Origin: Alphaproteobacteria bacterium
GTDB lineage: Bacteria > Pseudomonadota > Alphaproteobacteria > MPNO01 > UBA830
DNA length: 64,000 nucleotides
NCBI GenBank assembly: GCA_965243135.1
Contig: OZ251539.1
Location: 4,160,001 to 4,224,000, forward strand
Direction of reading: 5' to 3'
The position numbers were made by a program, and so were the translations under genes. The notes beneath the pieces were generated by a model. It saw nothing but the letters and a program-made list of their open reading frames with translations. It ran no database searches and was not told where the DNA came from. This document shows positions 14,947 through 49,454 of the stretch, in pieces; within the stretch, counting starts at the first letter, position 1; each line of letters opens with the position of its first letter.

Positions 14947-14993
14947 GCAGACCGGCCGGTAGACCCGATCAATCGTCTCGTTTCAACATGCCT

Positions 14994-15040
14994 CCCCCTA
15001 TCAACTTCGAAGCGCGCCGCAGGCGGAGTTGATAGGAGGG
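14994..15040. repeat. Complete palindromic site CCTATCAACTTCG-N14-CGGAGTTGATAGG
   Basis: 13-bp inverted arms (12/13 complementary) at 14997-15036; minus strand reads CCGCCTGCGGCGCGCTTCGAAGTTGATAG, homologous to 31322-31350. Confidence 0.8.
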
Positions 15041-15138
15041 AGACGCAAGAACGGCGCGGAAGGCTCCGGAGAACCGTTCCTGGACACGGCGGTTCCGCGA
15101 GCCGCGCCGTTCTCTCGTGCGAACGGGACTGCGCGCCT

Positions 15139-30994: not shown

Positions 30995-31254
30995 AAGCAT
31001 GCTCCAGAGTGGATTTGGAACCTTCGGTCGAGGCCGCGTGGGCACCGCACCGCACCTGAGTCCACCGAAAATATTATCCGAGGTCGCGGCGCTTATAATC
31101 CGGCAAAAGCCCTTCCGCGTCCAGGCATCGCCCCGCAGCGCGTCGGCAAGGCCGCCGAGCGCACGCGAGACCCGGCGGCGTCCATTTTCCCGGGCGGGCG
31201 ACCGGCACTTCCGGCGGCCTGCGACCCGCATGGAGCCCGCCGGGCGTTGTCCGC

Positions 31255-31354
31255 GCCGCCCCGGCACCTTGACTCACCGGCCAACTCATCCCCATACTGC
31301 CTTGGCGACAGCGATTGCCGACCGCCTGCATTGCGCTTCGGAGTTGATAGCGGG
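31255..31354 (+). repeat. ~100-bp promoter-carrying repeat, copy 1
   Basis: GCCGCCCCGGCACCTTGACTCACCGGCCAACTCATCCCCATACTG...GCGCTTCGGAGTTGATAGCGGG; TTGACT-18 bp-CATACT. Confidence 0.93.
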
Positions 31355-31457
31355 CCCACAGTCCGAAACACGATCATGCGGTTGGCAGCGCGACCTATGA
31401 ACCGTTCCGCTACATGGTCGGCGGGTTCGCTCTTCGACGTCAATAGGGAGAATGACC

Positions 31458-31874
31458 ATGAAGAAAATCAGCATCATCCTGCTGGCCGCTGCGATCCTCG
31501 CGTCCTGCGACGATGCCGACGTGGCGAAAGGCAACGTCTCGAAGGCGGCCAAGAATTTCGAGATCGCTCGACGGATCGTGTTCATCAACGGCATTACGGA
31601 CAACTACCTGCTCGAAATCCGCGGCCGTTGCGCGATCAATGCCGACGTTCATGACGATCAGCTTGAAGTGACCTGCAAGGTTCCGGACGGATACAAGGTT
31701 CACTTCCTGGGGCTTTCGGACAACGTCACCTATCTGGTCGAACAGATCGACGCGAAAGCCGTCTCGATCAATCATTATCGCGTCACGTTCAAGCCGCAGA
31801 CGATCGTGCCGTCGATAGATCTGCGCGGCGGCGGCGATTACGTCGGACCGACGATCAACAGGGGCAAACAATGA
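31458..31874 (+). CDS. Phage-associated lipoprotein
   Basis: Signal peptide with lipobox MKKISIILLAAAILASC; NFEIARRIVFINGITD..KVHFLGLSDNVTYLVEQ..HYRVTFKPQTIVP resembles a family common in phages. Confidence 0.75.
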   Translation: MKKISIILLAAAILASCDDADVAKGNVSKAAKNFEIARRIVFINGITDNYLLEIRGRCAINADVHDDQLEVTCKVPDGYKVHFLGLSDNVTYLVEQIDAKAVSINHYRVTFKPQTIVPSIDLRGGGDYVGPTINRGKQ

Positions 31875-32032
31875 CCGAGTGGGTTCGCTTCAACCTGCGA
31901 ATCGGCAAGCCGCTTATGGACCGGGCCGCCGCCGCATGCGTCAAGGTTCCGGAGTTCGCAAGGCACGCGCTCAAGGAAGCCTGCGAACGCGCCGAAACGC
32001 ACGCAGCGGAAAAGGAGAACGCCAATGGCTGA
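31871..32032 (+). CDS. Small ribbon-helix-helix-like protein
   Basis: Manual translation MTEWVRFNLRIGKPLMDRAAAACVKVPEFARHALKEACERAE (53 aa); ATGA overlap with lipoprotein gene. Confidence 0.45.
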   Translation: MTEWVRFNLRIGKPLMDRAAAACVKVPEFARHALKEACERAETHAAEKENANG

Positions 32033-32185
32033 CGAATCGCGCTGGATTTGAGCGTGGTCAGGAACCTCGCCGAAAACGGATCGAAGGTGGCGGCCGTGAG
32101 CAACCGGCTGTTTGCGGACAGCAGGGCTTGGTAAGCGGGCGACCTTCCGTACGGGAAATTCATCATTGACGAGGCGAACGCCCCC

Positions 32186-32297
32186 GCCGCCCCGGCGCCT
32201 TGACTCACCGGCCAACCCATCCCCATACTGTCCTTGCACAGCCACACACAGCCACACACACCGACCGCCGGTATTGCGCTTCGGAGTCGATAGCGGG
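32186..32297 (+). repeat. ~100-bp promoter-carrying repeat, copy 2
   Basis: Same sequence as copy 1 with an internal (GCCACACACA)x2 substitution; ends GCGCTTCGGAGTCGATAGCGGG. Confidence 0.93.
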
Positions 32298-32331
32298 AGT
32301 CCTGAGCCTAAACATCGCAGGGAAGACGACC

Positions 32332-32727
32332 ATGCATATTCACCAGGAAGGCATCTACCAATATGTTCGCCAGCAGGGCATCATTCTTCAGGGCCTCGCC
32401 GACGCCTGCCATTCCGACGAGGATCGGCTGCGCGAGGTCGAGGAGCGTCCGAAGGACGTTCTGCGGGAACATGGAATCCATGTGTCGATGGATGTGGACG
32501 TGAACATCGTCCTCAACACCCACGACACCTTCCATTTGGCCATGCCTCCCGACCCGAACCGGACGCTCCGGGACGAGGCGCTGATGGCGGTCGTCGGCGG
32601 CTCGGCCCCAAACACGGCGAGCTCGGCGGCAACCATTGGGAGCTTTCCTTCCACCGCGAGTTCGCTCAGCTCCGTGAGCTCCGCGCGGGTTACTTCGTCT
32701 CCGACCATGGAACCCTATAACCCTTGA
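32332..32727 (+). CDS. NHLP (nitrile hydratase-like leader)/proteusin-type RiPP precursor, Ser/Thr-rich core
   Basis: Leader PKDVLREHGI..VNIVLNTHDTFHLAMPPDPNRTLRDEALMAVVGG; core SAPNTASSAATIGSFPSTASSLSSVSSARVTSSPTMEPYNP. Confidence 0.85.
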   Translation: MHIHQEGIYQYVRQQGIILQGLADACHSDEDRLREVEERPKDVLREHGIHVSMDVDVNIVLNTHDTFHLAMPPDPNRTLRDEALMAVVGGSAPNTASSAATIGSFPSTASSLSSVSSARVTSSPTMEPYNP

Positions 32728-32790
32728 CCGCGAATCCTGCGATGATTGGTCGGCGCGCCGTCGTGCGAATCAGCTTCGGCGGGGGCAATC

Positions 32791-32807
32791 TCGGAGTTGA
32801 TAGCGGG
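32791..32807 (+). repeat. Half copy of palindromic site (TCGGAGTTGATAGCGGG)
   Basis: 17/17 identical to the terminus of repeat copies 1 and 3. Confidence 0.85.
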
Positions 32808-33090
32808 TAGGGTTTGAGTTTGCAGACGGACTTCTTGCCGAAATAGCGCGCGCACCGTTTGTCCGTCGTCGCGCTGAACATCAATGCCCTTCCGCTCGTA
32901 ACCCGGCCCTTCGACCTGGTCCAAAGCGCCTCGCTAGTCTTCTGGAATCCTGAACAGGACGCCGAAAGAGCGTTTGCCGGGAACCTCCCTCAAGGTCGCC
33001 TTTCCCGAACCGTCCTTGCTCGGTTTGCTGAAGTCCAGGGCATAGCCGTCCGCGGAGCGTCGGCCGGGCGTCGAACCGACAAAAAATGGT
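32808..33090 (-). pseudogene. Gamma-glutamylcyclotransferase (GGCT/AIG2-like) remnant
   Basis: GYALDFSKPSKDGSGKATL..GVLFRIPED*RGALDQVEGPGYERKGIDV..KLKPY with stop and frameshift; ends at the repeat half-site. Confidence 0.65.
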
Positions 33091-33337
33091 ACAGCGCAAG
33101 CGGTTCGGTTTTTTGCTCGGTGCGGCCGTTTGGCCGTTTGCCGCAGGGCGGCGGCGGCGTACGGCCGGCCGTGGGGTGGAATCCGCGAAAATCGCGACCT
33201 TGGCGCGGAGAATTCGCAGTTTTCCGCACCCGAGGAAAAAAATTCCGCACCCCGGAAAGCTGCCCGCATTTCAAGACGTTACGAACAGCGCACGCGGCTC
33301 CAATTCGGACTTCCCCGGAACGCTGCGAAAAGGCTGT

Positions 33338-33427
33338 TGGCGGAGAGTGAGGGATTCGAACCCTCGGTACGCGTGCGCGTACAACGGTTTTCGAGACCGC
33401 CCCGTTCGACCGCTCCGGCAACTCTCC
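33338..33427 (-). tRNA. tRNA-Ser(CGA)
   Basis: GGAGAGTTGCCGGAGCGGTCGAACGGGGCGGTCTCGAAAACCG...GGTTCGAATCCCTCACTCTCCGCCA, 90 nt, long variable arm, encoded CCA. Confidence 0.97.
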
Positions 33428-33498
33428 GCCCGAGAGAGTACCTCAGCGCGCCGAACCGCACAACTGGGCCTCGTCGCCCGGAAGAGCGGCACCGGGCG

Positions 33499-33526
33499 TT
33501 GACAATGCCGCCGCGCCTCTTATATT
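33499..33526 (+). promoter_or_regulatory. Putative sigma70 promoter of rplU-rpmA
   Basis: TTGACA-16 bp-TATATT. Confidence 0.6.
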
Positions 33527-33586
33527 CCGCCACCGCATCCGGATGAACGGCCTGCCGGAATGCGGAGATGAGGAGCCGGAACGGAC

Positions 33587-34180
33587 ATGTACGCAGTGGT
33601 CAGGACAGGCGGCAAGCAGTACCGCGTCGCCAAAGACGACGTGATCGTCGTGGAAAAGCTCGATGCCGCTCCCGGCGAGGTGATTGAGCTGGGCAGCGTT
33701 CTCGCGATGAACGACGGAGTTCGGCTGACCCTCGGCGAACCTCTGGTCGACGGCGCAAGCGTGACCGCGACGGTCCTGGAACAGAAAAGAGACGACAAGA
33801 TCGTCGTTTTCAAGAAAAAGCGCCGCAAGAACTATCGCCGGACGCGCGGTCACCGCCAGTCCGTTACCGTTCTTCGCATCGGGGAAATCCGTGCGGAATC
33901 CGGAATCCCGGCTCCTGAAATCGCGGCCCCGGCGGAAGAGGATCCCGTCGCGGAGCCGGAACGTCCGGAGGCCGCGGCCGAGGTAGAAGAAAATCCCGTC
34001 GCGGAGCCGGAACGTCCGGAGGCCGCGGCCGAGGTAGAAGAAAATCCCGTCGCGGAGCCGGAACGTCCGGAGGCCGCGGCCGAGGTAGAAGAAAATCCCG
34101 CAGCGGAACCGGAACGTCCGGAGGCCGCGAACGAAACGGATGACGGCGGAGAGGCTTCCGCCGTCCGCCAGGGAGACTGA
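33587..34180 (+). CDS. rplU: 50S ribosomal protein L21 with acidic repetitive C-terminal extension
   Basis: MYAVVRTGGKQYRV, VFKKKRRKNYRRTRGHRQ. Confidence 0.96.
   Translation: MYAVVRTGGKQYRVAKDDVIVVEKLDAAPGEVIELGSVLAMNDGVRLTLGEPLVDGASVTATVLEQKRDDKIVVFKKKRRKNYRRTRGHRQSVTVLRIGEIRAESGIPAPEIAAPAEEDPVAEPERPEAAAEVEENPVAEPERPEAAAEVEENPVAEPERPEAAAEVEENPAAEPERPEAANETDDGGEASAVRQGD
33942..34129 (+). repeat. 51-bp tandem repeat x~3.7 (NPVAEPERPEAAAEVEE)
   Basis: Units start 33942, 33993, 34044, 34095. Confidence 0.95.
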
Positions 34181-34183
34181 AGC

Positions 34184-34441
34184 ATGGCTCACAAGAAGGC
34201 GGGCGGCAGTTCCCGCAACGGCAGGGATTCCGCCGGACGGCGCCTCGGCGTCAAGAAATTCGGCGGCGAAGCCGTTCTCCCCGGCAACATCATCGTCCGG
34301 CAGCGCGGCACCAAATGGCATCCCGGCGACAACGTCGGCATCGGCAGGGACCATACGATCTTCGCCAGAACCGAAGGCCGGGTGGCGTTCCGCCGCCGGA
34401 CCGGAGGCCGGGTGTACGTTTCGGTCGAACCGGCCGGCTGA
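34184..34441 (+). CDS. rpmA: 50S ribosomal protein L27
   Basis: [16 protein letters not shown]. Confidence 0.98.
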
Positions 34442-36641
<2,200 letters not shown>

Positions 36642-36645
<4 letters not shown>

Positions 36646-37901
36646 GCGGAGACGACCTGGCTGCCGCCATGGAGCGGCTCGGACGCGCGGCCCGCGGGGC
36701 GGCCGGAGAACTCGGCCGGGCGCCCTCCGACCGGAAGAACGCCGCCTTGCGCGGCGCGGCGGCGGCTTTGCGAACGCGCAAGGACGATCTGCTCGCCGCC
36801 AACGAAAAGGATCTGGCGGCGGCGGAGGGCGTCTCGCCGGCGCTGCGCGACCGGCTCCGCCTCGACGAAGGGCGGATCGAAGCCATGGCCAAAGGCCTGG
36901 AGGAAATCTCGCGGCTCGACGATCCCGTGGGCGACGTCATGGCGTCCTGGAATCGGCCCAACGGCCTCGCGATCTCCCGGGTCCGGGTTCCGCTCGGCGT
37001 CATCGGACTCATCTACGAATCGCGCCCGAACGTCACCGCCGACGCGGGCGGGTTGTGCCTCAAGTCGGGAAACGCGGCGATATTGCGCGGCGGCTCCGAA
37101 AGCGGCCATTCGTCGCGGGCCATCTTCGAATGCCTGCAGGCGGGGCTGGCGGAAGCGGAACTTCCCGCGGGCGCGATCCAGATCGTGCCGACCGCGGACC
37201 GCGCGGCGGTCGGCCATCTGCTCGCCATGACCGACTACGTGGACATAATCGTGCCGCGCGGCGGAAAATCGCTCATCGAGCGCGTGCAGCGGGAGAGCCG
37301 CATTCCGGTGATCGCCCATCTGGAGGGCCTTTGCCATGTCTACGTCGACGGCGCGGCCGATCCGGAAATGGCGCGCAGGATCGTCTTCAACGCGAAGATG
37401 CGCCGCACGGGGATCTGCGGCGCGACGGAAACCCTTCTGGTGGATCGCGCGATCGCAAGCGAGGCGTTGCCGTCCATCATCGAAGATCTCGCCGATGCCG
37501 GATGCGAACTGCGCGGCGACGAAGCCACGCGGACGCTCGACCGGCGCGTGGGAAAGGCCGCCCCGGAGGACTGGCGGACCGAGTACCTCGACGCCATCCT
37601 GTCGATTCGGCAGGTCGAGGGGCTCGACGCCGCGATCGATCACATCAACGCCTACGGCTCTCATCACACGGACGCGATCGTGACCGCCGACGCCTCCCGG
37701 GCTCAGGCGTTTTTCGAGCGGGTCGATTCCGCGATCGTCCTGCACAACGCGTCCACCCAGTTCGCGGACGGCGGCGAGTTCGGCATGGGGGCGGAAATCG
37801 GCATCTCCACCGGCCGGCTGCATGCGCGAGGTCCGGTCGGCGTCGAGCAGTTGACCACCTTCAAATACGTCGTTCGCGGCGCGGGACAGGTTCGGCCCTG
37901 A
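36642..37901 (+). CDS. proA: Glutamate-5-semialdehyde dehydrogenase
   Basis: [39 protein letters not shown]. Confidence 0.97.
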
Positions 37902-38530
37902 CCGTCCTCGCGAAGAGCCGCCGAGGCCACGCGGCGACCGGGCTTCGCATCGGCATTTTGGGCGGTTCGTTCAACCCCGCCCACGATGGCCATATGCATA
38001 TCAGCCTGCTGGCGCTGAAGCTGCTTCGCCTCGACGAGGTGTGGTGGATGGTCTCGCCCCAGAACCCGCTGAAGCCGTCGCTGGGAATGGCGTCGTTCGA
38101 CGAACGGATGGCGGGCGCGACCGCGCTGGCCCGTCATCCCTGCATCCGGGTGACGGACATCGAACGCCGCTTCGGAACGACCTACACCGCCGACACCCTG
38201 GTCATTCTCAAACGGTGCTTCCCCAAGACCAGCTTCGTCTGGATCATGGGCGCCGACAATCTCGCGCAGATCTCGAAATGGCAAAACTGGACGCGCGTAT
38301 TCAATCTTCTGCCCATTGCGGTTTTCGACAGGGCTCCCTATTCTTTCGGAGCGCTCGCGGGGAAGGCGGCGAAGGCGTTCTTCCGGTTCAAGAAGAAGCG
38401 GAACGACGCCTGCAGCATCGCCGACATGAAGCCGCCGGCCTGGATGTTCTTCCACACGAGGCTGCATCCCGGGTCGGCGACGGAAATCCGCTCACGCAGA
38501 CGGGCGCGAAACGGGAAGCACGCGAACTGA
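37898..38530 (+). CDS. nadD: Nicotinate-nucleotide adenylyltransferase
   Basis: [35 protein letters not shown]; start uncertain (CTG). Confidence 0.92.
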
Positions 38531-38904
38531 ACAAGCTAGCGAACGACGGCGGAACGGCGGAAGCCCTGCTCGCCGGGATCAGCGAAACCCTTGAAGCGCA
38601 CAAGGCTCAGGACGTGGTGGTCATCGACCTCTCCGGAAAATCGGACATCGCCGACTACATGGTCGTCGCCAGCGGCGGATCCCGCCGCCAGGTCACGACG
38701 ATGGCGGAAAAGCTCGCCGAAACCGTGAAGGCGCACGGCGTCTCGGGCATGCGGCCCGAAGGGCTCGCGCAGGCCGACTGGGTGCTGCTCGACGCCGGCG
38801 ACGTCATCGTCCATCTGTTCCGTCCGGAGGTCCGCGCCTTCTACAACCTGGAAAAGATGTGGAGTGCCGAATTGCCGGGCGACCGGGATTCGGCGACCGC
38901 CTGA
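38527..38904 (+). CDS. rsfS: Ribosome silencing factor
   Basis: KAQDVVVIDL, ADYMVVASG, WVLLDAGDVIVHLF, FYNLEKMW; start uncertain (CTG). Confidence 0.93.
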   Translation: MNKLANDGGTAEALLAGISETLEAHKAQDVVVIDLSGKSDIADYMVVASGGSRRQVTTMAEKLAETVKAHGVSGMRPEGLAQADWVLLDAGDVIVHLFRPEVRAFYNLEKMWSAELPGDRDSATA

Positions 38905-38906
38905 CC

Positions 38907-39392
38907 GTGGACATCGCCATCTGCGCGGTGGGCCGCCTCGGACCGGGGCCCGAGCGGGAGCTGATCGAACGGTTCTCGAAACGGCTTCGCTGGAATTTCG
39001 AAATCCGCGAGGTGGCCGAGCGCCGGAAACTGCCGCCCCCGGCGCTTCGGGAACGGGAATGCGAACTTCTCCGGGCGGCTTGTCCGCCGGGATCCCTGCG
39101 CGTCGCGCTCGATCGAACGGGAAGCGATCTCGACAGCGAGGGACTGGCGGCGCGGCTGGAAGCGTGGCGCGACGCCGGGCGCGGAGTCGCCTTCGTCATC
39201 GGCGGCGCGGAAGGGCTGACGGCGAGCCTCCGGGAGAGCGCGGACTTCGTGCTCGGCTTCGGGACGGCCACCTGGCCGCACATGCTGGTCCGGGTCATGC
39301 TGACGGAGCAGCTCTACCGGGCTCAGGAAATCCTCGCCGGCAACCCCTATCACCGGGGTTCGCGGCGCAACGAACGAAAGGCGGCGGCATGA
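38907..39392 (+). CDS. rlmH: 23S rRNA pseudouridine-1915 N3-methyltransferase
   Basis: ICAVGR, FVIGGAEG, TWPHMLVRVMLTEQLYRA, PYHR. Confidence 0.94.
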   Translation: MDIAICAVGRLGPGPERELIERFSKRLRWNFEIREVAERRKLPPPALRERECELLRAACPPGSLRVALDRTGSDLDSEGLAARLEAWRDAGRGVAFVIGGAEGLTASLRESADFVLGFGTATWPHMLVRVMLTEQLYRAQEILAGNPYHRGSRRNERKAAA

Positions 39393-40951
39393 CCGGCGAA
39401 CGACCGCGACATCCGGTCGTGCTCTGCGTGCTGGACGGATGGGGGCACCGGGAAGACCGGACGGACAACGCGATCGTCCAAGCCAACGCACCGGATTTCT
39501 GGGAGTTGCGTGAAACCTGCCCGCAGGCGCTGATCGAGGCGTCCGGCGTTGACGTCGGGCTTCCGGCGGGCCAGATGGGCAACTCGGAAGTGGGACACCT
39601 CAACCTCGGCGCGGGCCGCGTCGTGGACCAGGACATTCGCCGGATAGACGAGGCGATCGAGACCGGCGCCCTGGCCGCGAAGCTCGACGAATTCGCGGCG
39701 TCCCTCTCGGCGTCGAAGGGCGTTTGCCACCTGGCCGGGCTGCTGTCTCCCGGCGGCGTGCATTCCCATCAGGACCACATGGCGGAGATCGCCCGGATAC
39801 TCGACGAGCGGGGCGTGCAGGTTGCGGTGCACGGCTTTCTCGACGGCCGCGATTCTCCGCCCTTGAGCGCCGTCGAATTCGTTCGGACGTTCGAAAGGCG
39901 CATCGCGGGCGGGCGGGCGCGGATCGCCACGCTGTGCGGCCGGTTCTACGCGATGGACCGGGACCGGCGCTGGGACCGGGTCGCGCGCGCATACGACTTG
40001 CTGGTTTCCGGGGCGGGAGACCGGGCTTCCGGCGCGGTCGCCGCAATTCGCGAAAGCTATGCCCGCGACGTTACCGACGAGTTCATGCTCCCGGCCGTCG
40101 TTGGCGACTACGCGGGAATGCGCGACGGCGACGGGCTGTTGATGGCGAACTTCAGGGCCGACCGGGCGCGCGAGATCCTCGGGGCGCTGCTCGACCCCGG
40201 GTTCGACGGATTCGAGCGCAAGCGGACCGCGAAGTTCGCCGCGGCGCTGGGACTGACCGGATATTCCGCCGCGCTCGACGCGCTGATGGGATCGATGTTT
40301 CCGCCGCTGCCGCTGGACAACATTCTCGGAGGCGTCATCTCGAAAGCGGGCCTGCGGCAGCTGCGCATCGCCGAAACCGAGAAGTACGCCCACGTCACCT
40401 TCTTCTTCAACGGCGGCGAAGAGGCGCCGTTCGCGGGAGAGGACCGGGCGCTGATCCCGTCGCCCCGCGTCGCCACGTACGACCAGCGTCCGGAAATGTC
40501 GGCCTTCGAAGTGACCGACCGGCTGGTCGCGGAGATCGCGTCCGACCGCTACGGCTTCGTGCTCGTGAACTACGCCAATCCTGACATGGTGGGGCACACG
40601 GGAATGCTGGAGCCGGCCGCCGCCGCGATACGCGCCGTCGACGCCTGCCTCGGGCGCGTCGCCGAGGCGGTGCGCCGGGCGGGCGGCGTTTTGTTGATCA
40701 CTGCGGACCACGGGAACGCGGAATCGATGCGGGACGCCGAGACCGGCGCGCCGCATACGTCCCATACGCTCAACAAGGTCCCGGCGGTTCTCGTTAACGC
40801 GCCGGAAGGCTTGGCGCTGCGGGACGGCCGGCTCGCCGACGTCGCGCCGACGGTGCTCGATTTGATGGGAATCGAGGCGCCCGCCGAAATGACCGGCGTC
40901 TCGCTTCTGGCGCCGGACGCGGCTGCTTCGGCGGCGCGAAACACGGCCTGA
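39389..40951 (+). CDS. gpmI: 2,3-BPG-independent phosphoglycerate mutase
   Basis: LDGWG, GQMGNSEVGH, GRFYAMDRD, ETEKYAHVTFF, NPDMVGHTG, TADHGN. Confidence 0.97.
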   Translation: MTGERPRHPVVLCVLDGWGHREDRTDNAIVQANAPDFWELRETCPQALIEASGVDVGLPAGQMGNSEVGHLNLGAGRVVDQDIRRIDEAIETGALAAKLDEFAASLSASKGVCHLAGLLSPGGVHSHQDHMAEIARILDERGVQVAVHGFLDGRDSPPLSAVEFVRTFERRIAGGRARIATLCGRFYAMDRDRRWDRVARAYDLLVSGAGDRASGAVAAIRESYARDVTDEFMLPAVVGDYAGMRDGDGLLMANFRADRAREILGALLDPGFDGFERKRTAKFAAALGLTGYSAALDALMGSMFPPLPLDNILGGVISKAGLRQLRIAETEKYAHVTFFFNGGEEAPFAGEDRALIPSPRVATYDQRPEMSAFEVTDRLVAEIASDRYGFVLVNYANPDMVGHTGMLEPAAAAIRAVDACLGRVAEAVRRAGGVLLITADHGNAESMRDAETGAPHTSHTLNKVPAVLVNAPEGLALRDGRLADVAPTVLDLMGIEAPAEMTGVSLLAPDAAASAARNTA

Positions 40952-41266
40952 AGATCGCACGTTGCAGGGCGCCGCCGCGAAGCGAGCCGGGCGACGCCCG
41001 GCCGACGGCGCAGGGAAGGAGCCCGGCGAAGGATCCTCCGCCCGAAGCCTTCGGAAGAAAGCGCCGGCTCCGTCGACCGTCTCTTCCCGGCTCGCGCTGT
41101 CCGTCCCTGCCGCTTCCGATTTTCCGCGGAACGGGATAGACTTCGCCGTGCGGCCGGCCGCGCCGGGTTTTCGCAGCGGCGCGGCCCTCGACGGACGCGC
41201 AGGATTGGCGCGCGGGACCGGGAGAGATCCCGCGCCGCCCGACATGGCATGCGAGGTAAGCAAGCA

Positions 41267-42511
41267 ATGATCAATCGGTTGATGGCCATCGGCATCGTGG
41301 CGCTTCTGTTGTCGCATCCGGCGTCAGGTCAGCAGAACGGTTCCGAAACCTACCGGCAGCTCGAGCTGCTCGGGGACGTCTTCGAGCGCATCCGCGCGGA
41401 GCATGTCCAGGAAGTGTCGGACGAAGACCTCGTGGAAGCTGCCGTCAACGGCATGCTGGCCTCGCTCGATCCGCATTCGAGCTATCTGAGCCCGAAGGAC
41501 TTCCGCGACATGCAGGTCCACACGCGCGGCGAGTTTGGCGGCCTCGGCATCGAAGTCACGATGGAGAACGGCGTCGTCAAGGTGGTTTCCCCGATCGACG
41601 ACACTCCGGCGTTCCGCGCGGGATTGAAGCCGGGCGACCTGATCACGCATCTCGACGGCGAGCCGATACAGGGGCTCAGCCTCGCGGAAGCCGTCGAGAA
41701 GATGCGCGGTCCGGTCGACACCGATCTCGAACTGACGGTCCGGAGAGCGAACCGCGAACCGTTCAAGGTCAAGATCACGCGGGCGGTCATCAAGATCCGG
41801 TCGGTCCGCTCGCGCATGGAAGGCGAGGATATCGGCTACGTCAGGATTACCTCATTCAACGAACAGGCCGGCCCCGATCTCGAGAAGGCGGTCGCGAAAT
41901 TGAAGGAAGAAACCAAGCTTCGCGGACTGGTCTTGGACCTGCGCAACAATCCCGGCGGCTTGCTCGAGCAATCCGTCGCGGTCGCGGACGCCTTTCTGGA
42001 AAGCGGAGAAGTCGTTTCGACCCGCGCGCGCCGCCCCGACGACAGCCAGCGGTTCAACGCGAAGGAAGGAGACATCGCGAAGGGGATTCCGATCGTCGTT
42101 CTCGTGAACCGCGGGTCGGCGTCGGCCTCCGAGATCGTCGCGGGCGCGCTGCAGGATCACCAGCGGGCGCTCATCATGGGAACGAGAACCTTCGGCAAGG
42201 GATCGGTGCAGACCGTGATCCCGCTCGGTCCGCACGGCGCGATCCGGCTGACGACGGCGCACTACTATACGCCCGCGGGCAGATCGATCCAGGCGAAGGG
42301 CATCGATCCCGACATCCCCGTGGAACAGGCCAGACTGCAGACCGTGGAATCTTCCTCGCCGCGGGAGGAAGACCTTCGCGGACGGCTGGACAACCCCGGC
42401 GCCGAGGGAGGCACGGACGCGCCCGCCGCTCCCGAACGGCAGGACTACCAGCTGTCGCGAGCGCTCGATCTGCTGCGGGGGATTTCGCTGTTTTCCGGAG
42501 CGAACAACTGA
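41267..42511 (+). CDS. ctpA: Carboxy-terminal processing protease, S41 family
   Basis: LDPHSSY, PDZ GEFGGLGI, DLRNNPGG, SASASEIVAGALQD, TFGKGSVQ. Confidence 0.95.
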   Translation: MINRLMAIGIVALLLSHPASGQQNGSETYRQLELLGDVFERIRAEHVQEVSDEDLVEAAVNGMLASLDPHSSYLSPKDFRDMQVHTRGEFGGLGIEVTMENGVVKVVSPIDDTPAFRAGLKPGDLITHLDGEPIQGLSLAEAVEKMRGPVDTDLELTVRRANREPFKVKITRAVIKIRSVRSRMEGEDIGYVRITSFNEQAGPDLEKAVAKLKEETKLRGLVLDLRNNPGGLLEQSVAVADAFLESGEVVSTRARRPDDSQRFNAKEGDIAKGIPIVVLVNRGSASASEIVAGALQDHQRALIMGTRTFGKGSVQTVIPLGPHGAIRLTTAHYYTPAGRSIQAKGIDPDIPVEQARLQTVESSSPREEDLRGRLDNPGAEGGTDAPAAPERQDYQLSRALDLLRGISLFSGANN

Positions 42512-43029
42512 CCGGGGAGCGCGGCGCGCCGCCCGCCGGCTACCGTCCCTGCGTCGGCGTCATGCTGGTCGACCGGCTCGGGCGCGCGTTCACGGGCGAA
42601 CGGATCGACACGCCGGGAGCGTGGCAGATGCCACAGGGCGGCCTCGACGAAGGCGAGACCCCCGAGCGGGCGGCGGCGCGGGAGCTGCGGGAAGAGACGG
42701 GGATCGTTTCGGTCGAGTTGCTTGCGGTTTCCGGCGAATGGCGCGCCTACGACCTGCCTCCGCGGATCGCGTCCGGCATCTGGGGCGGCCGCTGGCGCGG
42801 CCAGGCCCAGATCTGGACGCTGTTTTCGTTCGTCGGCGACGAGGCGGAAATCGACCTCAGGACGAAGCATCCGGAGTTCCGGCGCTGGAAATGGACGCCG
42901 CCGGACAGGCTCCTCGACGAAATCGTAGACTTCAAGCGCGGCGTCTACGAAGCGGTGCTGGAGGAATTCGGATCCGTCGCGCAACGGCACCTCGACGCTC
43001 GAAGGCGCCGCGTGCCGCCGCAGGCTTAA
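42508..43029 (+). CDS. rppH: RNA pyrophosphohydrolase
   Basis: YRPCVGVML upstream of the track's ATG; Nudix box WQMPQGGLDEGE..RELREETG; HPEF, FKRGVY. Confidence 0.92.
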   Translation: MTGERGAPPAGYRPCVGVMLVDRLGRAFTGERIDTPGAWQMPQGGLDEGETPERAAARELREETGIVSVELLAVSGEWRAYDLPPRIASGIWGGRWRGQAQIWTLFSFVGDEAEIDLRTKHPEFRRWKWTPPDRLLDEIVDFKRGVYEAVLEEFGSVAQRHLDARRRRVPPQA

Positions 43030-43043
43030 CCGTATTTATGTAA

Positions 43044-43094
43044 CCCCTTATCGATTTCGAAGTGCGACACGTGCGGTCAGCAATCTCGGTCACG
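43044..43094 (-). repeat. Diverged copy of the 3' half of the 100-bp repeat
   Basis: Minus strand GTGACCGAGATTGCTGACCGCACGTGTCGCACTTCGAAATCGATAAGGGG aligns without gaps to the end of copy 3; 15 bp after rppH stop. Confidence 0.8.
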
Positions 43095-43099
43095 GCGCA

Positions 43100-43283
43100 A
43101 GACCCTGTCGTCGCGGCCCCCGTTCGCCGCGAAATGCAACCGGATGGTCGGGTGCGCTTCTGGGGAACGGTTACGCGACCCGGCGAAAACGCTCCGCGCA
43201 TCCTCCGCGTGGTCACGCTGGCCGACGGAAAAACGGTCCATAACGCTTTCTTCGATCGGGGATTCAGGGAGGACGAACCATGA
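43100..43283 (+). pseudogene. 5'-truncated toxin-like gene paired with DUF2283
   Basis: PVRREMQPDGRVRFWG..LRVVTLADGKTVHNAFFDRGF; ATGA overlap with DUF2283 gene; 5' end occupied by the repeat. Confidence 0.6.
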
Positions 43284-43495
43284 AGCTCCATTACTATCCC
43301 GAAACTGACAGCCTCTACATCGAGCTCGGACCCGCGCCAAGTGTGGAGACGCGCGAGGTTTCCGACGGGTTGAACGTCGATCTCGACGCCGCTGGCGGCG
43401 TGGTTGGCTTCGATATCGACCATGCGTCGCGGCGGCTCGATCTCTCCACGCTTGAGGCCGAGGCGCTGCCGCTCCGCTCGATCAGAGCGGGATGA
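43280..43495 (+). CDS. DUF2283 family putative antitoxin
   Basis: MKLHYYPETDSLYIEL..DLDAAGGVVGFDIDHAS. Confidence 0.85.
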   Translation: MKLHYYPETDSLYIELGPAPSVETREVSDGLNVDLDAAGGVVGFDIDHASRRLDLSTLEAEALPLRSIRAG

Positions 43496-43531
43496 GCGCA
43501 ATGGCGGGCGAGACGACGGCCGCGGCTAGGC

Positions 43532-45898
43532 CTGCCTGTGCCCCATAAAGATTTTTCTGGACTCTGGCCAGCCGATTCGCTACGGTGCCCGGCATGGAGT
43601 TCCAGAATCAGGTTCGGCAAAGCCTCCGGAACGATTTTGCGCGCTTGCAAGGGGTGCTGGCGAACGGGGTTTTCACTCGCCGCAGCGAGGTCGCGGATCG
43701 CGTGTGCGAAGCATTCGGGTTTCGTGATGGGCTTGGCCGCCTGCAGCGAGCGGGCTGTCTGAAGGCGTTGGCGGAGTTTGAGGCGGCGGGACGGATTTCG
43801 CTGCCGTCGCCGACGCATTCCGGCGGTGGCGCGTGGCGCCCGCGACGTCTTGCGGAGCCGGTTCCTCCGCCGAAGAGCGTACCGGAGGAAGTCGGTGCGG
43901 TCGAGGGCCTGGAGTTGGTGCCGGTGACGGATGACGATCATCGCCTGGTATGGAACACGATGCTGGAGGAGGAGCATCCACGCGGCGCCGGTCCACTGGT
44001 GGGCTGTCAGTTACGGTATCTGGTGGGGTCGGCGCATGGCTGGCTGGGGGCTGTCGGGTTCGCGGCGTCGGCGCACAGGCTCGAATGCCGCGACCGTTGG
44101 ATAGGCTGGAGCGACGCAGGAAGGCGCGCTTGTTTGCACCGGGTCGTGTGCCTGTCGCGTTTTCTGGTCCGGCCCGGCGTCGAGTGCCGTAATCTTGCCT
44201 CGCATGTCTTGGGCGGCGTGGTCCGCAGGGTGGGAGACGATTTCGAGGCGCGCTACGGCTACCGCCCGTATTTGCTGGAGACCTTCGTAGACCGGCATGC
44301 GGGAACGAGCTTTCAGGCGTCCAACTGGCACCGAATTGGCGAGACAGCCGGCCGGGGGCGACAGGATCGGGAACATGCGGCAACGGAGACGCCGAAGGCT
44401 GTATATGTGTACGAATTGGATGCGGACTGGCAGGTGCGCATCCTGGAGCCGCGTGCGCCGCTTGCACCGTTGGAGGTCGGATCCGGTCTGGATCGGGAGA
44501 GTTGGGCGGAACAGGAGTTCGGCGGTGCGCCGCTGGGGGATGTGCGTCTGAGCGCGCGCCTGGTGACTTGTGCCCGATATCAGGCGGAAGCGCCGACGCA
44601 GGCGTTCACGTGCGCTGCGAGAGGGGGCCTTGATAAAGGCTTACTATCGCTTGATCGACAAGCCGGACAGTGATGCGGTGACGGTGGAGAACATCCTGCA
44701 GCCGCATCGGCGGCAGACGCTGCGGCGGATGCAGGGGGAGAAGACGGTGCTGTGCGTGCAGGACGGCAGCACGCTGAACTTCGCGAAGCGGGGGAAGACC
44801 GAGGGTTTGGGAATCATCGGTCGGAACCAGACCGGCGCCGGCACCCGAGGCCTGAACCTGCACGCCACGGTCAACACGGAGGGGCTGCCGCTGGGGGTTC
44901 TGCGGGCGGCGTTCGATGCGCCGCAGCCGAGCGCGGAGAGGGACAAGCCCCGCGAGAAGAAGAAGTCGTACCGTTGGATTCAGGGCCTTCAGGACAGCGC
45001 CGAGGCTGCTTCTGCACTCGATGGCGTGCAGGTGGTCGGCGTCATGGACCGGGAGGCGGACTTCGTCGACCTGTTCGTTGAGCGGCGCGAGCGGGCGCCG
45101 GGAGTGGAACTTCTGGTGCGGGCGAAGACGAACCGGGTTCTCGGCAAGGACGACACCGACAAGCTGTTCGACAAGGTGCGGAAAAGCCCGGTGCAGGGCA
45201 AGCGCGTCATCGAGGTCAAACGTCTGAGCGCACGCATAAAGGCAAGCAAGCAGGCCGCGAGGGCCGTGCGGCCGGAGCGCCAGGCCACGGTCGAACTGCG
45301 CTACCTCAAGGTCGAGTTGCCGGCGAAGGGCAAGAATCCCGTCGAGGCGACGATTGTGCATGTCCGCGAGAAAGCTCCCCCGCCGGACGCCGGACGGCTG
45401 GAATGGTTCCTGCTGACGACGCTGCCGGTCGAGAGCGCCGAGGACGCCGAACGCATCCTGACTTGGTATGGCCTGCGCTGGCGTATCGAAGATTATTTCA
45501 GGGTCCTGAAGTCCGGCTGCCGAGGACCTTGAGAATCGGACGGCCGAACGTCTTCAGCGTGCCGCCGCCATCAACATCGTCATCGCCTGGCGCATCCACC
45601 TGATGACCCGTCTCGGACGGGAACTGCCCGATCTGCCGCCTGAGATCCTGTTCTCGGACGTCGAACTCCGGGTGCTGGCGCTCCTCGCCAAATCTTGGCG
45701 CATGGCACCGCCGAAAAGCCTCGGAGACGCTGTCTTCCTGGTCGCCCGCCTCGGAGGGTACTTCAAGCGCAAGCGTGATCCGCCAGGCGCGGAAGTGATG
45801 TGGAACGGCTACGCCCAACTCGCCGCCAAGGCGCATTTCCGGGAACTTGAGGATGAACACGGATGTTAGTTCAGCAAAACTTTATGGGGCACAGGCAG
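43532..45898 (+). mobile_element. IS4 family (IS50/Tn5-like) element
   Basis: Perfect terminal inverted repeats CTGCCTGTGCCCCATAAAG; direct repeat GGCTAGGC at 43524-43531 and 45899-45906. Confidence 0.92.
43594..45869 (+). pseudogene. DUF4338 + Tn5-like transposase fusion, two frameshifts (~44630, ~45525)
   Basis: GPLVGCQLRYLV, NLASHVL, LLETFVD; WAEQEFGGAPLGDVRL, VQDGSTLNF, VMDREAD, YGLRWRIEDYFRVLKSGC, VARLGGY. Confidence 0.85.
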
Positions 45899-46098
45899 GG
45901 CTAGGCGGCGGCGCTTGCCGTTCGGAGGTCTCGGGATTGCGGCGCTGAGGGCTGCCCCGTAACGCCCTGTCTTCACACCGCGACGCCCGAACGTGGAACG
46001 GTTATGTCGGTGCATGATAGCGGTGCGAGGCCGGGTGAACCATGACCAAAGTTACATGCTACGGGGTGAGCAGGCGCCGATCATGAGCGTTTGTTTCG

Positions 46099-49000
46099 TT
46101 GGCCCTTGACGCGCGCAACGCCGCCGCGCACTTCGCCGGCGAAATGGAGGCGCACGCCGCGCTGCGCCATCTGGACGCCATGCGCGAACTCCTGGCCGCC
46201 ATCGGCGCTGCTGGCCAGGAGACTGCGCTCGCAGCCCTTTATGACGAGCAATTTGCGGCAGACAGCGGGCCGGGGGCGGGCGCTAGCGACCTTAGGCTTG
46301 AGGAACCGCCGCCGGAACGCCCGCGCCCCTGGCGCGAGGTTTGCGAACCGCATCCCGATGTTCTGGCGGCGCGCTTCTCCGACGCCGAGTTCGCGGCCAA
46401 TCTGGCGTTGGTTGATCGGGGCCAGGGCGAGGAAGAATACGTCGACCCGGCGGTGTTCTTCCGCATCACCCATATGACCGAAGGGCTGCGACTGGTACTG
46501 CGGGCAGTCATCAAGCGGCTCGGCGGACGCGGCGGCGAGCCGGTGATCAGGCTTCAGACCAATTTCGGCGGCGGCAAGACCCACACCATGCTGGCGCTCC
46601 AGCGCGGTCGAGGCCGGCTACCGACCGAAGACTCTCGAAGGCTTGACTCCGATCTTCGCCGAGGCAGGCGTCGAAACCCTTCCCCGAATCCGGCGCGCGG
46701 TGTTCGTCGGCACCGACAAGGGTGCAGCAGAGGCAATGCACGTGGAGGATGGCCGGGAGGTCCGAACTCTGTGGGGGTACATCGCATGGCGGCTCGGTGG
46801 CTGGAAGGCAGTCGACAGCATCGCCGCGTCGGAAGACGCGGGGACAAATCCGGGATTGAAAAAGCTGATCCCTATTCTTCGCGAGGCTGTGCCGTGCCTG
46901 ATCCTGATGGACGAGGTAGTGGCGTTCGCACGCCAGTTGCGAGGCGTGCCTTACGACGCCTTCCACGCCTTCGTCCAGTCGCTGACCCGAGACCGCGGCC
47001 GCAGTCGAAGGTGCCGTGGTGGTCGGTTCGCTGCCGGAATCGGGCACCGAGGTCGGTGACGAGCAGGGTGAGACGGCGTTGCGGCGGCTGGAAAAGATTT
47101 TCGGGCGCCTGCAGTCGGCTTGGACGCCAGCGACCGATGTCGAGACCTTCGAGATCGTCCGGCGCCGCCTGTTCCAGCCGCTCGACGAAGCGGGCGGGCA
47201 AGCGCGCGACGAGACCGTTTGGGCGTTCCGCAAACTCTATCGCGACAACCGTGCGGACTTTCCGCCGAAAGCGCATGAAGAGGTCTACGAAGACCGGATG
47301 CGCCGCGCCTATCCACTGCATCCAGAAGTGCTACGGCGGTTTTCCGGCGATTGGTCAGTGCTGGAGAAGTTCCAGCGCACGTGCGGCGCTCTCAAGATCA
47401 TGGCGGGTGCCGTCTATGCGCTGTGGCAGGGCGAAAGCACCGCGCCCCTGATCACGCCGGCGCTGCTGCCGCTTCGCGATGCGCGCGTGCGGACCGCCCT
47501 CTTGGAACCGCTGGATCGCGCCTATGGGCCGATCCTGCAATCGGAAGTGGATGGCGATCAAGCGCTCACGGCGCGGATCGAGGCCCGGCGGCCTCGGATC
47601 GGCCGCGCAAAAGCGGCGACGGGCGCGGCGCGGGCGGTGTTTTTCGCCACTGCACCCCACGCAGGCGCCGCAAGCAACGCGCGCGGCGGCTTGACCGGCG
47701 CGGATCTGTGGCTCGCCTGCGCTCGTCCCGGCGACCAAATCGCGGTCTTCGGGGAGGCGCTGCAGGAAATCGCGTCAAGCGCGGCCTATCTCTACCGCGA
47801 TGGCGACCGCTTCTGGTTCTCGCCCCGCCCGACCCTGAACAAACTCGCCGCCGACCGCGCCCGCGACATGGACGCCGAGCGCGTCGACCGGCGCATCGTG
47901 GAAGTATTGCGCGAGGAAGCGCGCGACCGCGGCGGGTTCCACCGCGTCCACGCGGCTCCGGACGATCCATCCGACATTGAGGATCGGCGCGACGCTGCAG
48001 CGCTTGTGATCCTGCCTCCCTCGGCGGCGCACGACAACGACGGACCACCGCCATCCGCGGCGGAAACGCTTGCGCGAGACATCGTGGAGCGGCGCCGGAC
48101 CGGACAACGGAGCTATCGCAACGCGCTGGCGTTCGTGGCCGCCGACGCAGCGAACTTGGATGCGGCCCGCGAGAACGTGCGGCGGAAACTCGCTTGGCGG
48201 TCGATCTTGGACGATTCCGACCTTGAGAAGAACCTAACTCTCGCGCAGGCGAACGACGCCAAAGGACAGTTCGAGCGCGCGGGCGAGGCGCGCCGCCGCA
48301 GCGTCCGTGGTGCTTGGGTGCACCCCCTCTGTCCGGCGCCGGTCGAGGGCGCGAACGGCAAGCCATCTTCTGGTTTCGCCTTGCAGGCCGCACGGCTGGT
48401 GAACCGGGATGGTGCCAAAAGCGTGGCGCATGCAGCATGGGACAAGGCGACCGGGGACGGCACAGCGCTCGGCGAGATCGGCCCCGAAAACCTGACCCGC
48501 TGTCTCGAACCGCTGTGGCCGGAGAGCCAGCCGCATGCTCTGGTCGAGGACCTCCGCGAGTGGTTCGCTTCCTATGTTTACCTGCTGCGCTTGCGCGACG
48601 AGGCGGTTCTCGACGGCGCGCTGCGCCGCCTCGCCGAAGACTTCGCTCGGCCCTTCGCGCTCGCGGCCGGATTCGACGAGGCGACTGGTGTCTATGTCGA
48701 TGTCGTCGACGGAAAGGCGCTCCCGTTGGGAAACCTAGGCTCCCGTCTTCTGGTGCGTCGGGAGGCCATACCGGCGCCCCCTGAAGACCCTCGTCCGCCG
48801 CCGCCCGGCGGCAAGGCGTCGGACGATGCCAAGAGCGGCGGCGACCCCGACAAGCCGCAACCACCGCCCGACACGCCGCGGCCGAAACGGTTTTTCGCAT
48901 CGCTGAAGCTCGATCCCGAGCGTGCGGGCCGCGATGTAGCGCGGATCATGGACGGCCTGCTGGTCGAATTGACCCGCACGCCGGGGGCCAAAATCGAACT

Positions 49001-49124
49001 GACGCTGGAGATCGCAGGAACGGCGAGCGAAGTCGGCTACCCGCCGGATGTTGTGGACACCGTCACCGCCAACGCACGCGACCTCAAGTTGGATCAAGGC
49101 GACCTGGGGTTCGAGAAGAATTGA
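46099..49124 (+). pseudogene. DUF499 AAA+ ATPase, 5'-truncated and frameshifted
   Basis: PWREVCEPHPDV, EFAANL, Walker A LQTNFGGGKTHTML, Walker B LILMDE in another frame, FEIVRRRLF, AYPLHPE. Confidence 0.85.
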
Positions 49125-49354
49125 CGGCGAAGGTTCCGGTGCGTCGCCGCCGCGCCGACAGTGCGGTCGCAAAGGACGGGGTGGGCGCTTTGTCGAGCGC
49201 AGCCGGCAAGGCTGTCGCCGGGCTGCAGTGGCCTGCGCTCTGCGCGTCGGCCCGGCCACGCAGGTTCGCGGCCCAGGACAGGACAAACGGCGGTCGTCGG
49301 CGCGGCCACGGGGCAGAGGGGGATTTTTTCGCTGCGGCGGGGGCGTTCGCCTCC

Positions 49355-49454
49355 GCCGCCCCGGCTCCTTGACTCACCGGCCAACCCATCCCCATACTGC
49401 CTTGGTGACAGGGATTGCCGACCGTCGGTATTGCACTTCGGAGTTGATAGCGGG
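49355..49454 (+). repeat. ~100-bp promoter-carrying repeat, copy 3
   Basis: GCCGCCCCGGCTCCTTGACTCACCGGCCAACCCATCCCCATACTG...GCACTTCGGAGTTGATAGCGGG. Confidence 0.93.

Follow-up and report, generated by a model that had tools for sequence, protein, structure and literature searches.

The window, i.e. the whole 64-kb stretch of DNA that was analysed, harbors a module of about 100 nt in three full plus-strand copies together with a minus-strand fragment and a half-site, and all five pieces of the original prediction were recovered in place. The nhmmer E-values of the window copies range from 1e-38 to 1e-31, which is far beyond chance similarity. Copy 1 (e083; 31255..31354, plus strand) has the top score in the family (90.2 bits) and is composed of a -35/-10 pair at 31269-31298, a leader and an end site. 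It precedes a phage-type lipoprotein gene (31452..31874, plus strand; Pfam Phage_VG64, E 6.8e-51), which starts 99 nt past the module and is followed by a small ORF without family match (31871-32032); the segment 31355-32185 containing this cargo has no second copy anywhere in the genome. Copy 2 (e084; 32186..32300, plus strand; 59.5 bits) has its promoter-like site at 32200-32229 and reaches a length of 112 nt or more because of an 18-nt CA-rich replacement within the leader. Its cargo is a gene for an NHLP-like RiPP precursor (32332..32727, plus strand), which matches the NCBIfam model TIGR03793 (leader_NHLP) with E 3.1e-10 and 39.8 bits, i.e. below the curated cut-off of 50.9. An orphan end site, the half-site (32791..32808, plus strand), lies 3' of the NHLP cargo and forms the right end of a duplicated unit. 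Copy 3 (e086; 49355..49454, plus strand; 86.5 bits) carries the -35 hexamer at 49369-49374, the -10 hexamer at 49393-49398 and the end site at 49434-49454. The fragment is a 5'-truncated, promoterless copy on the minus strand (e085; ~43044..43094; model positions 48-96, 29.8 bits) and faces a convergent NUDIX gene from its 3' side (opposite-strand ORF; Pfam NUDIX, E 6.2e-19).

The module proved to be a genome-wide repeat, because an iterated nhmmer search at E < 1e-3 (85, then 114, then 113 copies) identified 113 copies in the 6.1-Mb genome. The local array that had been proposed for 31.2-32.8 kb holds insofar as two units stand in a row there, but the window copies are 3 of 113 genome-wide and do not represent a local array; regular cassette arrays were not found, two units in a row being the maximum. 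Of 438 copy pairs, 251 lose their homology between -5 and +4 nt of the 3' end of the model, which confirms genome-wide the sharp stop of similarity predicted from the window, and in 179 pairs the homology starts between -5 and +4 nt of the 5' end of the model. Among the 22 pairs extending more than 25 nt downstream, 16 represent duplicated genes, 6 have a common IS110 insertion and 2 extend by 31-34 nt only. The module is a discrete unit with sharp boundaries. The youngest copies have 130-260 nt of additional upstream sequence in common, and the 5' boundary is ragged there. At copy 3, this upstream extension (49206..49333, plus strand), which is common to the youngest copies only, consists of a T-run and a flanking repeat; a BLAST search with 49206-49361, including the first 7 nt of the module, gave 13 further matches, about 7 of them directly 5' of other module copies. 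The GC-rich 5' hairpin of the original prediction is clear over the 5' edge of copy 3 (49334..49359, plus strand), where the inverted-repeat scan found 12-nt arms of 92% complementarity separated by 2 nt, but it is not general, since among the 70 copies whose 5' end is intact just 10% have a 5' flank that is more stable than the random 5th percentile.

The consensus scan detected sigma70-type matches (TTGACT-18 nt-CATACT) at 31269-31298 and 32200-32229 as the sole promoter-like sites in the 2 kb scanned, where 0.5 were expected, and the same hexamer pair can be read directly in copy 3 at 49369-49398. The motif is present as predicted in all three window copies, but genome-wide just 34 of the 113 copies, including these three, combine an exact -35 core with a -10-like hexamer at a distance of 16-19 nt (18 nt in 30 of the 34); the same rule is passed by 3.7% of 3917 random -35-core sites. 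Across 53 aligned full copies, conservation of the -35 block reaches 90% or more. Within the module, conservation is lowest in the -10 region, which is odd for a promoter under selection. Moreover, recurrent 6-nt deletions lead to a 12-nt spacer, which sigma70 should not use.

When paired with the 3' tail of the genome's own 16S rRNA, the end-site window has a median of -8.0 kcal/mol compared with -4.7 for random 23-mers (p = 2e-21), and the pairing is below the random 5th percentile in 32% of 81 copies; the pairing of a mid-leader window was not different from random. In copy 3, the bases 49440-49448 pair with the 16S tail with one mismatch and -10.1 kcal/mol. The module end therefore reads as an extended Shine-Dalgarno sequence. 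In many copies, the start codons of Pfam-supported genes, among them genes for an ankyrin protein, a MTase, Mrr, AAA_21 and a DEAD helicase, are located 5-20 nt past the module end. The claim that the end site is palindromic was not borne out, because the inverted-repeat scan found no inverted repeat within it.

Conservation is higher in two blocks of the module, namely in the -35 region and in the leader, than in the intervening -10 linker, and this would be expected if the module were the shared cis-regulatory leader of a regulon, in which one protein or RNA regulator binds the blocks and co-controls defence and accessory genes. The occurrence of the module upstream of unrelated defence genes points in the same direction: genes for Cas9, pAgo, MkoA, PsyrT, PDC-M65A, two MTases, Mrr and an RNA ligase all carry it, and none of these genes has a paralogue at 50% coverage or more. 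So does an unrelated alphaproteobacterial MAG, which has one match confined to the leader part (30.3 bits, E 1.2e-6). However, no consensus structure was found in the leader by RNAalifold with 75 copies, and five of six individual leaders folded no better than shuffled sequences (z -0.79 to +2.15). Rfam, which had been suggested as a check, gave no family match for the module; the whole window matched only tRNA at the gathering threshold, and the E-value search of 31150-32400 returned a single chance miRNA match (E 0.33). Furthermore, housekeeping-type genes carry the module too, and no match to it was obtained in 4 same-genus genomes, 40 relatives and 150 genomes of the same class, so that a wider distribution, another check of the original prediction, was not found. 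Taken together, control by a common regulator is a possible, somewhat unlikely explanation. In such a regulon, conservation would reflect selection and not just recent copying; it is compatible with the explanation preferred below as an added layer. Two other candidates were discarded. The stable fold of the sixth leader, from the Cas9 copy, owed its score to an unrelated downstream hairpin. For a leader peptide, an in-frame start followed by a double stop can be read directly in several copies; by inspection, the column conservation has no three-base periodicity, and non-triplet indels are common.

In a pattern scan of contigs from other genomes, the matches listed were mostly single chance ones and the model was significant at 1 of 113 loci, and an exact 23-mer of the module had 0 matches in metagenome contigs, a set that may by design omit close relatives. 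Two module-bearing genes have orthologues in all four same-genus genomes with 65-82% amino-acid identity, and the upstream synteny is not kept.

The DNA on the two sides of the module differs. The median GC content downstream is 62.8% compared with 65.8% in random windows (p = 7e-12), and 18.6% of the downstream windows are below the 5th GC percentile of the genome versus 2.7% of the upstream windows. Hence, the DNA faced by the module looks foreign and the upstream side does not. The original prediction had placed the module before orphan cargo genes. PADLOC defence matches, including Cas9, pAgo, PtuA, MkoA and PsyrT, were found for 15 of 112 downstream ORFs and 5 of 120 controls (odds ratio 3.6, p = 0.018), with controls that were clustered at six points per region and are thus not independent. 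This enrichment of defence genes is a modest one. Pfam matches are more frequent among the downstream ORFs on the same strand (39 of 113) than among ORFs on the opposite strand (20 of 110; p = 0.006). These orientation counts rest on Pfam-supported ORFs on both strands; the co- and anti-oriented counts of our own codon-usage gene caller were dropped, because low-GC cargo such as the lipoprotein and NHLP genes was miscalled.

These polarities bear on the view that the module is an inert repeat, i.e. junk DNA accumulating in IS-rich intergenic regions, with incidental promoter- and Shine-Dalgarno-like matches. It would readily accommodate the 79 of 113 copies that fail the strict -35/-10 rule, the many copies that are truncated, internally deleted or interrupted, and the convergent gene faced by roughly one in three of those copies whose neighbour could be identified (20/110). 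Nevertheless, the orientation bias, the GC difference between the two sides, the specificity of the 16S-tail pairing for the end site and the tight start-codon spacing in many copies all argue against it, and we regard an inert repeat as very unlikely.

The explanation to which we give somewhat better than even confidence is that this lineage-specific dispersed repeat of about 113 copies represents a portable expression unit, which would have been pasted before unrelated genes and then decayed. As predicted, the unit would consist of a sigma70-type promoter, then a leader of some 55 nt without stable fold, and thirdly a 3' end serving as extended Shine-Dalgarno region. Copies would be pasted with sharp boundaries 5' of unrelated genes, many of them compositionally foreign and with defence genes over-represented, and would afterwards decay to differing degrees. 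From these signals we infer that the promoter fires and that the module drives the downstream gene. The portable module with promoter-like and ribosome-binding-site-like signals before unrelated genes is a supported part of the original prediction: 233 copy pairs (65 copies) are 80% or more identical over a length of 50 nt or more without any downstream homology.

A precedent exists in the putative mobile promoters (PMPs), which were defined as closely similar upstream sequences at non-paralogous genes of one genome and for which the mechanism of spreading is unknown (Nijveen, Matus-Garcia and van Passel 2012, PMC3575422). The working criterion was an identity of 80% or higher along 50 nt or more in a window of -150 to -50 from the start codon, and the families were mostly pairs (PMC3575422). 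The 233 pairs reach the same identity and length, counted irrespective of the -150..-50 window of that paper. Unlike PMPs, the module family has 113 copies, adds a ribosome-binding-site region abutting the start codon, and combines foreign-DNA polarity with defence-gene enrichment. The module family can be regarded as a putative lineage-specific mobile promoter family. If active, one repeat family would equip dozens of unrelated accessory genes of a sponge-associated bacterium with signals for both transcription and translation, with many distinct anti-phage systems among the genes served. It might account for the control of a whole defence arsenal in common and would make a testable case of promoter propagation as a route to the expression of horizontally acquired genes.

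How such a unit might spread was addressed by searching for mobility machinery and element ends. Correia elements, ERIC and REPIN, which are promoter-bearing small repeats, are named in PMC3575422. The module resembles them in being short, dispersed, intergenic and of high copy number, and such repeats can give promoters to their neighbours. The defining features of those families are inverted repeats at the termini or a palindromic structure, to which Correia elements add a TA target duplication. In contrast, the one window copy scanned had no terminal inverted repeat, only 5' hairpins and no arm joining both ends. For 53 full copies, the longest string that the left flank has in common with the right flank was the same as in shuffled pairings, which gives no sign of target duplications of at least 5 nt in a test that is blind to duplications of 2-4 nt. 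Moreover, no Y1 (HUH) transposase or RAYT gene was found, as PF01797 had 0 matches at E <= 0.001 in the genome, which is 98.8% complete. These results weigh on the idea, given as the simpler alternative in the original prediction, of a MITE-like non-autonomous transposon with an outward promoter and a transposase encoded elsewhere, comparable to Correia elements. The discrete ends of this alternative were found, and a uniform length of about 100 nt, the high copy number, the confinement to this lineage and the abundance of IS elements and other small repeats in the genome would suit it as well; the lack of a terminal repeat in the scanned copy, of target duplications of at least 5 nt and of a Y1 transposase and the ragged 5' boundary of the youngest copies speak against it. 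We consider a MITE-like element unlikely. Insertion sequences may also carry outward promoters that activate adjacent genes, and remnants of the IS30, IS630 and IS110 families adjoin several module copies, which would fit a promoter borne by mobile DNA. However, the module is not a constant part of any IS, and different copies are flanked by different IS types.

Four NHLP paralogues elsewhere in the genome lack the module and have a different upstream region in common, and the homology of the window gene to these paralogues begins exactly at the module end. At this gene, the module has taken the place of the native upstream region, i.e. a promoter swap. Copy 2 and its NHLP cargo are duplicated at genome positions 3085621-3085012 with 99% identity. 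Both ends of this unit of module, NHLP gene and half-site are within module homology, as inter-copy recombination would give; the right-hand homology arm of about 17 nt is short for RecA-type recombination. We infer that the module most likely spread by recombination or gene conversion between copies, plus rearrangements at the end site, and that a dedicated transposase or integrase is a less likely agent.

The end site also occurs on its own. Orphan end sites number 34 genome-wide versus about 9 expected by chance, and the exact 11-mer at 49440-49450 has 25 occurrences versus 1.3 expected, 14 of them outside modules. The breakpoints of the orphan sites fall inside a zone of 5 nt, a hint of site-specific events and not of random ones. 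Such features could be expected from an integron-like capture platform, in which the end site is an attachment site and a recombinase encoded elsewhere inserts promoterless cargo behind promoter and ribosome-binding site. Integrons combine attI/Pc with attC cassettes and have one promoter per array. The likeness in logic is evident, as a promoter-bearing site is directly followed by genes that have no promoter of their own, are often foreign and in part serve defence; the cargo begins right after the sharply defined end site, the foreign-looking DNA is located downstream and not upstream, the NHLP cargo and the cargo after e012 each have a full module on one side and an orphan end site on the other, and an RNA-guided IS110-family element does insert exactly at the end site. 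However, these two are the only non-IS cases of this order. At four modules, the downstream half-sites are module ends split off by the decayed IS110-family element, both frame-shifted pieces of which match NCBIfam NF033542 (E 4.3e-13 and 3.2e-17, below the full-length cut-off); Pfam gave no match on this element, and the PF01548 matches are located elsewhere in the genome. The genome has 22 PF00589 tyrosine recombinase matches, of which 0 are within 2 kb of a module and 3 within 5 kb compared with 3.4 expected. As predicted, no such match lies in the window, the nearest being about 2 kb past its right end, and neither an IntI-like or other integrase linked to any copy nor the alternative HUH gene could be found. 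Truncation breakpoints are scattered from model position 30 to 84, and the sole duplicated unit contains the module itself and ends in module homology. Finally, the module differs from integrons in having one module per gene, no arrays of more than two units and no attC-like imperfect palindromes at the cargo ends. The integron-like capture system of the original prediction is not supported by these data, and we judge it distinctly unlikely.

A related reading is that the module acts as landing pad and expression socket, with the end site as recombination hot spot and promoterless foreign DNA placed or retained behind a host-adapted promoter and ribosome-binding site. We hold this to be improbable, about to the same degree as a MITE-like element. 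The incoming DNA would then include whole defence systems, for example Cas9, pAgo, Septu, Mokosh and PsyrTA, and the end site is demonstrably used by the RNA-guided IS110-family recombinase. If true, this would amount to a gene capture and co-expression system for defence genes without an integron integrase. With the end site as target of the IS110-family element, there is a natural case of a multi-copy regulatory repeat to which an RNA-guided recombinase is directed. End sites also occur without promoter parts in the window, where two of them on opposite strands stand back to back at 14990..15045, the minus-strand site being followed by a purine-rich stretch and an ATG.

Direct reading and alignment place three nearly identical copies of the module, a repeat of about 100 nt, on the plus strand of the window (copy 1, 31255-31354; copy 2, 32186-32300, with an 18-nt CA-rich replacement; copy 3, 49355-49454). 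They also place a 5'-truncated copy on the minus strand (~43044-43094) and a terminal half-site, i.e. an end site lacking the rest of the module, at 32791-32808, all as described in the original prediction. The window corresponds to positions 4160001-4224000 of its host contig, a single one of 6.10 Mb. A family profile seeded with the three window copies and iterated with nhmmer on the genome (E < 1e-3) returned 85, 114 and finally 113 copies, 60 on the plus and 53 on the minus strand, with scores ranging smoothly from 90 down to 22 bits. The family comprises a young near-identical subfamily and many older copies that are deleted or truncated.

The boundaries of the module were analyzed by pairwise alignment of all copies, including 1 kb of sequence on either side. 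Among the 438 pairs obtained, homology ends at the 3' end of the model (-5 to +4 nt) in 251 and starts at its 5' end (-5 to +4 nt) in 179. Homology extending more than 25 nt downstream was found in 22 pairs in total: 16 represent duplicated genes (an array of AAA-ATPase-like genes, the NHLP duplicate and three other pairs that arose by duplication), 6 have a common inserted IS110-family element, and 2 reach only 31-34 nt. An identity of at least 80% over at least 50 nt, the working criterion for mobile promoters (PMC3575422), together with no downstream homology was observed for 233 pairs, in which 65 copies take part. Some seven of the youngest copies have an extra 130-260 nt upstream in common, made up of a T-run plus a palindrome rich in GC that is either short or long.

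The pair TTGACT-N18-CATACT, proposed for each full copy in the window, was confirmed by a consensus scan at 31269-31298 and 32200-32229, the only two promoter-like sites in the 2 kb scanned compared to 0.5 expected, and by direct reading at 49369-49398 in copy 3. In 53 aligned full copies the -35 block is the most conserved part of the module (at least 90%) and the indel-prone -10 linker the least conserved one. Under a strict rule, the exact -35 core is kept in 66 of the 113 copies, and 34 of the 113 combine it with a -10-like hexamer at a spacing of 16-19 nt (18 nt in 30 of them); among 3917 -35-core sites of the random control only 3.7% have such a hexamer at this distance. Regarding the leader, RNAalifold gave no consensus fold on 75 copies, and five of six single leaders were no more stable than their shuffles. 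The comparison with Rfam families suggested in the original prediction recovered only the tRNA-Ser at 33338-33427, and the sole match of an E-value search of 31150-32400 was a chance one (E 0.33).

The 16S gene of the genome has the canonical tail at its 3' end, with which the end-site window pairs at a median of -8.0 kcal/mol compared to -4.7 for random 23-mers (p = 2e-21); in 32% of 81 copies the pairing lies below the random 5th percentile, while a window in the middle of the leader paired no better than random. In young copies the pairing with the 16S tail involves nine bases (window 49440-49448) with one mismatch, and a G-run comes next; in many older copies, a Pfam-supported gene begins with its start codon 5-20 nt past the module end. 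Judged by sequence, these promoter-like, leader, 16S-pairing and start-codon data indicate that the module carries a putative promoter, a leader and a ribosome-binding site.

The end site also occurs by itself. The exact 11-mer at window 49440-49450 is found 25 times in the genome compared to 1.3 expected, 14 times outside modules, and a fuzzy 18-mer 40 times in modules and 34 times as orphans compared to about 9 expected by chance. The orphans sort into four classes: (a) copies e034, e050, e071 and e077, which the IS110-family element described below interrupts just a few bases ahead of the 11-mer; (b) three copies (genome 519378, 1152673 and 6043971), in which an internal deletion fuses the spacer following the -35 box to the end site; (c) 5'-truncated copies with breakpoints at model positions ~30 to 84; and (d) back-to-back end sites, such as those at window 14990-15045. 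Minimal orphans have their breakpoints clustered in a zone of about 5 nt, hence the end site fits a site-specific hot spot. One user of it is proven, a decayed IS110-family element of 1.1-1.3 kb, about five copies of which share one fixed insertion point inside the end site. Decayed copies lie in the extracted loci L017 (1578-2862) and L019 (393-1501) and at genome 2767293-2768480, with the transposase frame opposite to the module, and the right end of the element followed by the end site also stands alone at further places. In the longest copy, two frame-shifted ORF pieces match NCBIfam NF033542, "IS110 family RNA-guided transposase" (E 4.3e-13 and 3.2e-17), both scoring below the full-length cut-off; a Pfam search of the element ORFs gave no match. 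The deletion junction of the three class b copies looks like the right end of this element.

In the array at 31.2-32.8 kb, the gene behind copy 1 encodes a lipoprotein homologous to Phage_VG64 (E 6.8e-51). The reading of the gene behind copy 2 as NHLP is supported at E 3.1e-10, though below the curated cut-off. Four NHLP paralogues elsewhere in the genome (3806110, 3792035, 4921489 and 962094) lack the module. Upstream they share a conserved region of about 150 nt with a C-run, which differs from that of the window copy and possibly represents the native regulatory region of these paralogues. Directly after copy 3 (window ~49465-49492), a short motif similar to this region occurs as an inverted repeat. 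Homology between the window NHLP and its paralogues starts at the end of the module, ~36 nt before the ATG, and the native upstream region was not found further upstream of the window copy. The comparison thus shows a promoter swap and not just a module inserted into the native region. The unit at 32195-32801, which spans the -35 region through the half-site, occurs a second time at 3085 kb with 99% identity, where it lies within a resident module, with that module's first bases on the left and its last 17 nt and a gene start on the right. Such a duplicate would be expected from recombination or gene conversion between copies of the module, although the right arm is short. At 0.5 kb past the array, the minus strand carries the tRNA-Ser(cga); tRNA genes are common landmarks of island integration.

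The downstream gene of each copy was defined as the longest ORF on the same strand with a start within 450 nt. Of these, 39 of 113 have Pfam matches (E <= 1e-4) compared to 20 of 110 opposite-strand ORFs selected under a matching rule (p = 0.006), hence the module tends to face a co-oriented gene, if not always. There is also a clear polarity in GC composition: the 600 nt downstream have a median of 62.8% compared to 65.8% in random windows (p = 7e-12), with 18.6% below the genome's 5th percentile, and the 600 nt upstream a median of 65.0%, with only 2.7% below it. Of 112 downstream ORFs, 15 are matched by PADLOC models, among them PtuA, pAgo, MkoA, Cas9, PsyrT, NsnB, NsnC, HEC-01A, PDC-M65A and two methyltransferases, compared to 5 of 120 ORFs obtained by the same rule from random points in 20 random 20-kb regions (odds ratio 3.6; p = 0.018, a rough value because the control points are clustered). 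Modules lie upstream of Cas9, pAgo, MkoA, PsyrT, PDC-M65A, both methyltransferases, Mrr and an RNA ligase, for none of which tblastn detected a paralogue at 50% coverage or more, and upstream of both PtuA paralogues. Since such genes abound throughout the genome (152 matches to PF09820 and 64 to PF13304), part of the association with defence may reflect where accessory DNA accumulates. The AAA-ATPase_like (PF09820) and PDDEXK_9 genes are hugely expanded, many of the 152 six-frame matches standing in tandem with a spacing of ~2.2 kb, for example in locus L057 (G000 1277442-1289478), and seven module-downstream ORFs with Pfam matches belong to this family. The genome's only Cas9 gene is situated 43 nt behind a module copy (L102, G000 5260236-5263230), with a very stable hairpin in between; the 106-nt region as a whole has a folding energy of -49 kcal/mol (z = -4.1).

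Flanks of the 53 full copies are no more alike than shuffled pairings, therefore no target duplication of at least 5 nt was found; no terminal inverted repeat was found in the window copy scanned, and no Y1 transposase in the genome. An integrase linked to the copies, sought as originally suggested, did not appear, the 22 tyrosine recombinase matches of the genome showing no enrichment near them. The IS types adjoining copies differ: three copies have IS30 remnants upstream, one is directly followed by an IS630-type DDE_3 gene, and two have a multi-copy IS 5 nt upstream. None of these IS consistently contains the module. In its stated form, the integron-like gene-capture system initially proposed is not supported; a weaker one may hold, in which the end site would be a hot spot of recombination at which foreign genes are placed or retained. 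The simplest account fitting all data is a lineage-specific putative mobile promoter family, in which a promoter-leader-RBS unit would have been copied in front of accessory genes, followed by decay of the copies. The propagation of promoters as a concept is already in print (PMC3575422). A limited literature search revealed no paper on a family like this module, and no claim of unpublished status is made here.

BLAST of the module gave no match in 40 relatives, 4 of which share the genus, 20 the family and 16 the order, nor did a sequence-only covariance model in the four same-genus genomes (150 candidates scored per genome) or, with stricter filters, in 150 genomes of the same class (26 candidates per genome). 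A single match to leader and end site occurs in an unrelated alphaproteobacterial MAG, G041 (30.3 bits, E 1.2e-6; L236 1501-1548, minus strand), without the promoter part and without a second copy in that genome. Sponge metagenomes are among the sequencing runs containing the DNA of the window. Further repeats lie at window 45905-46095 and 33150-33300 (~190 and ~150 nt, dozens of copies each genome-wide), 45000-45907 (an IS-like 0.9-kb segment, at least 10 copies) and 50431-50550 (two adjoining ~60-nt units, many copies). The same-genus genomes G001-G004 each have 33-42 matches to the large subunit of molybdopterin-binding oxidoreductases (MoCoBD), a very large paralogue family.
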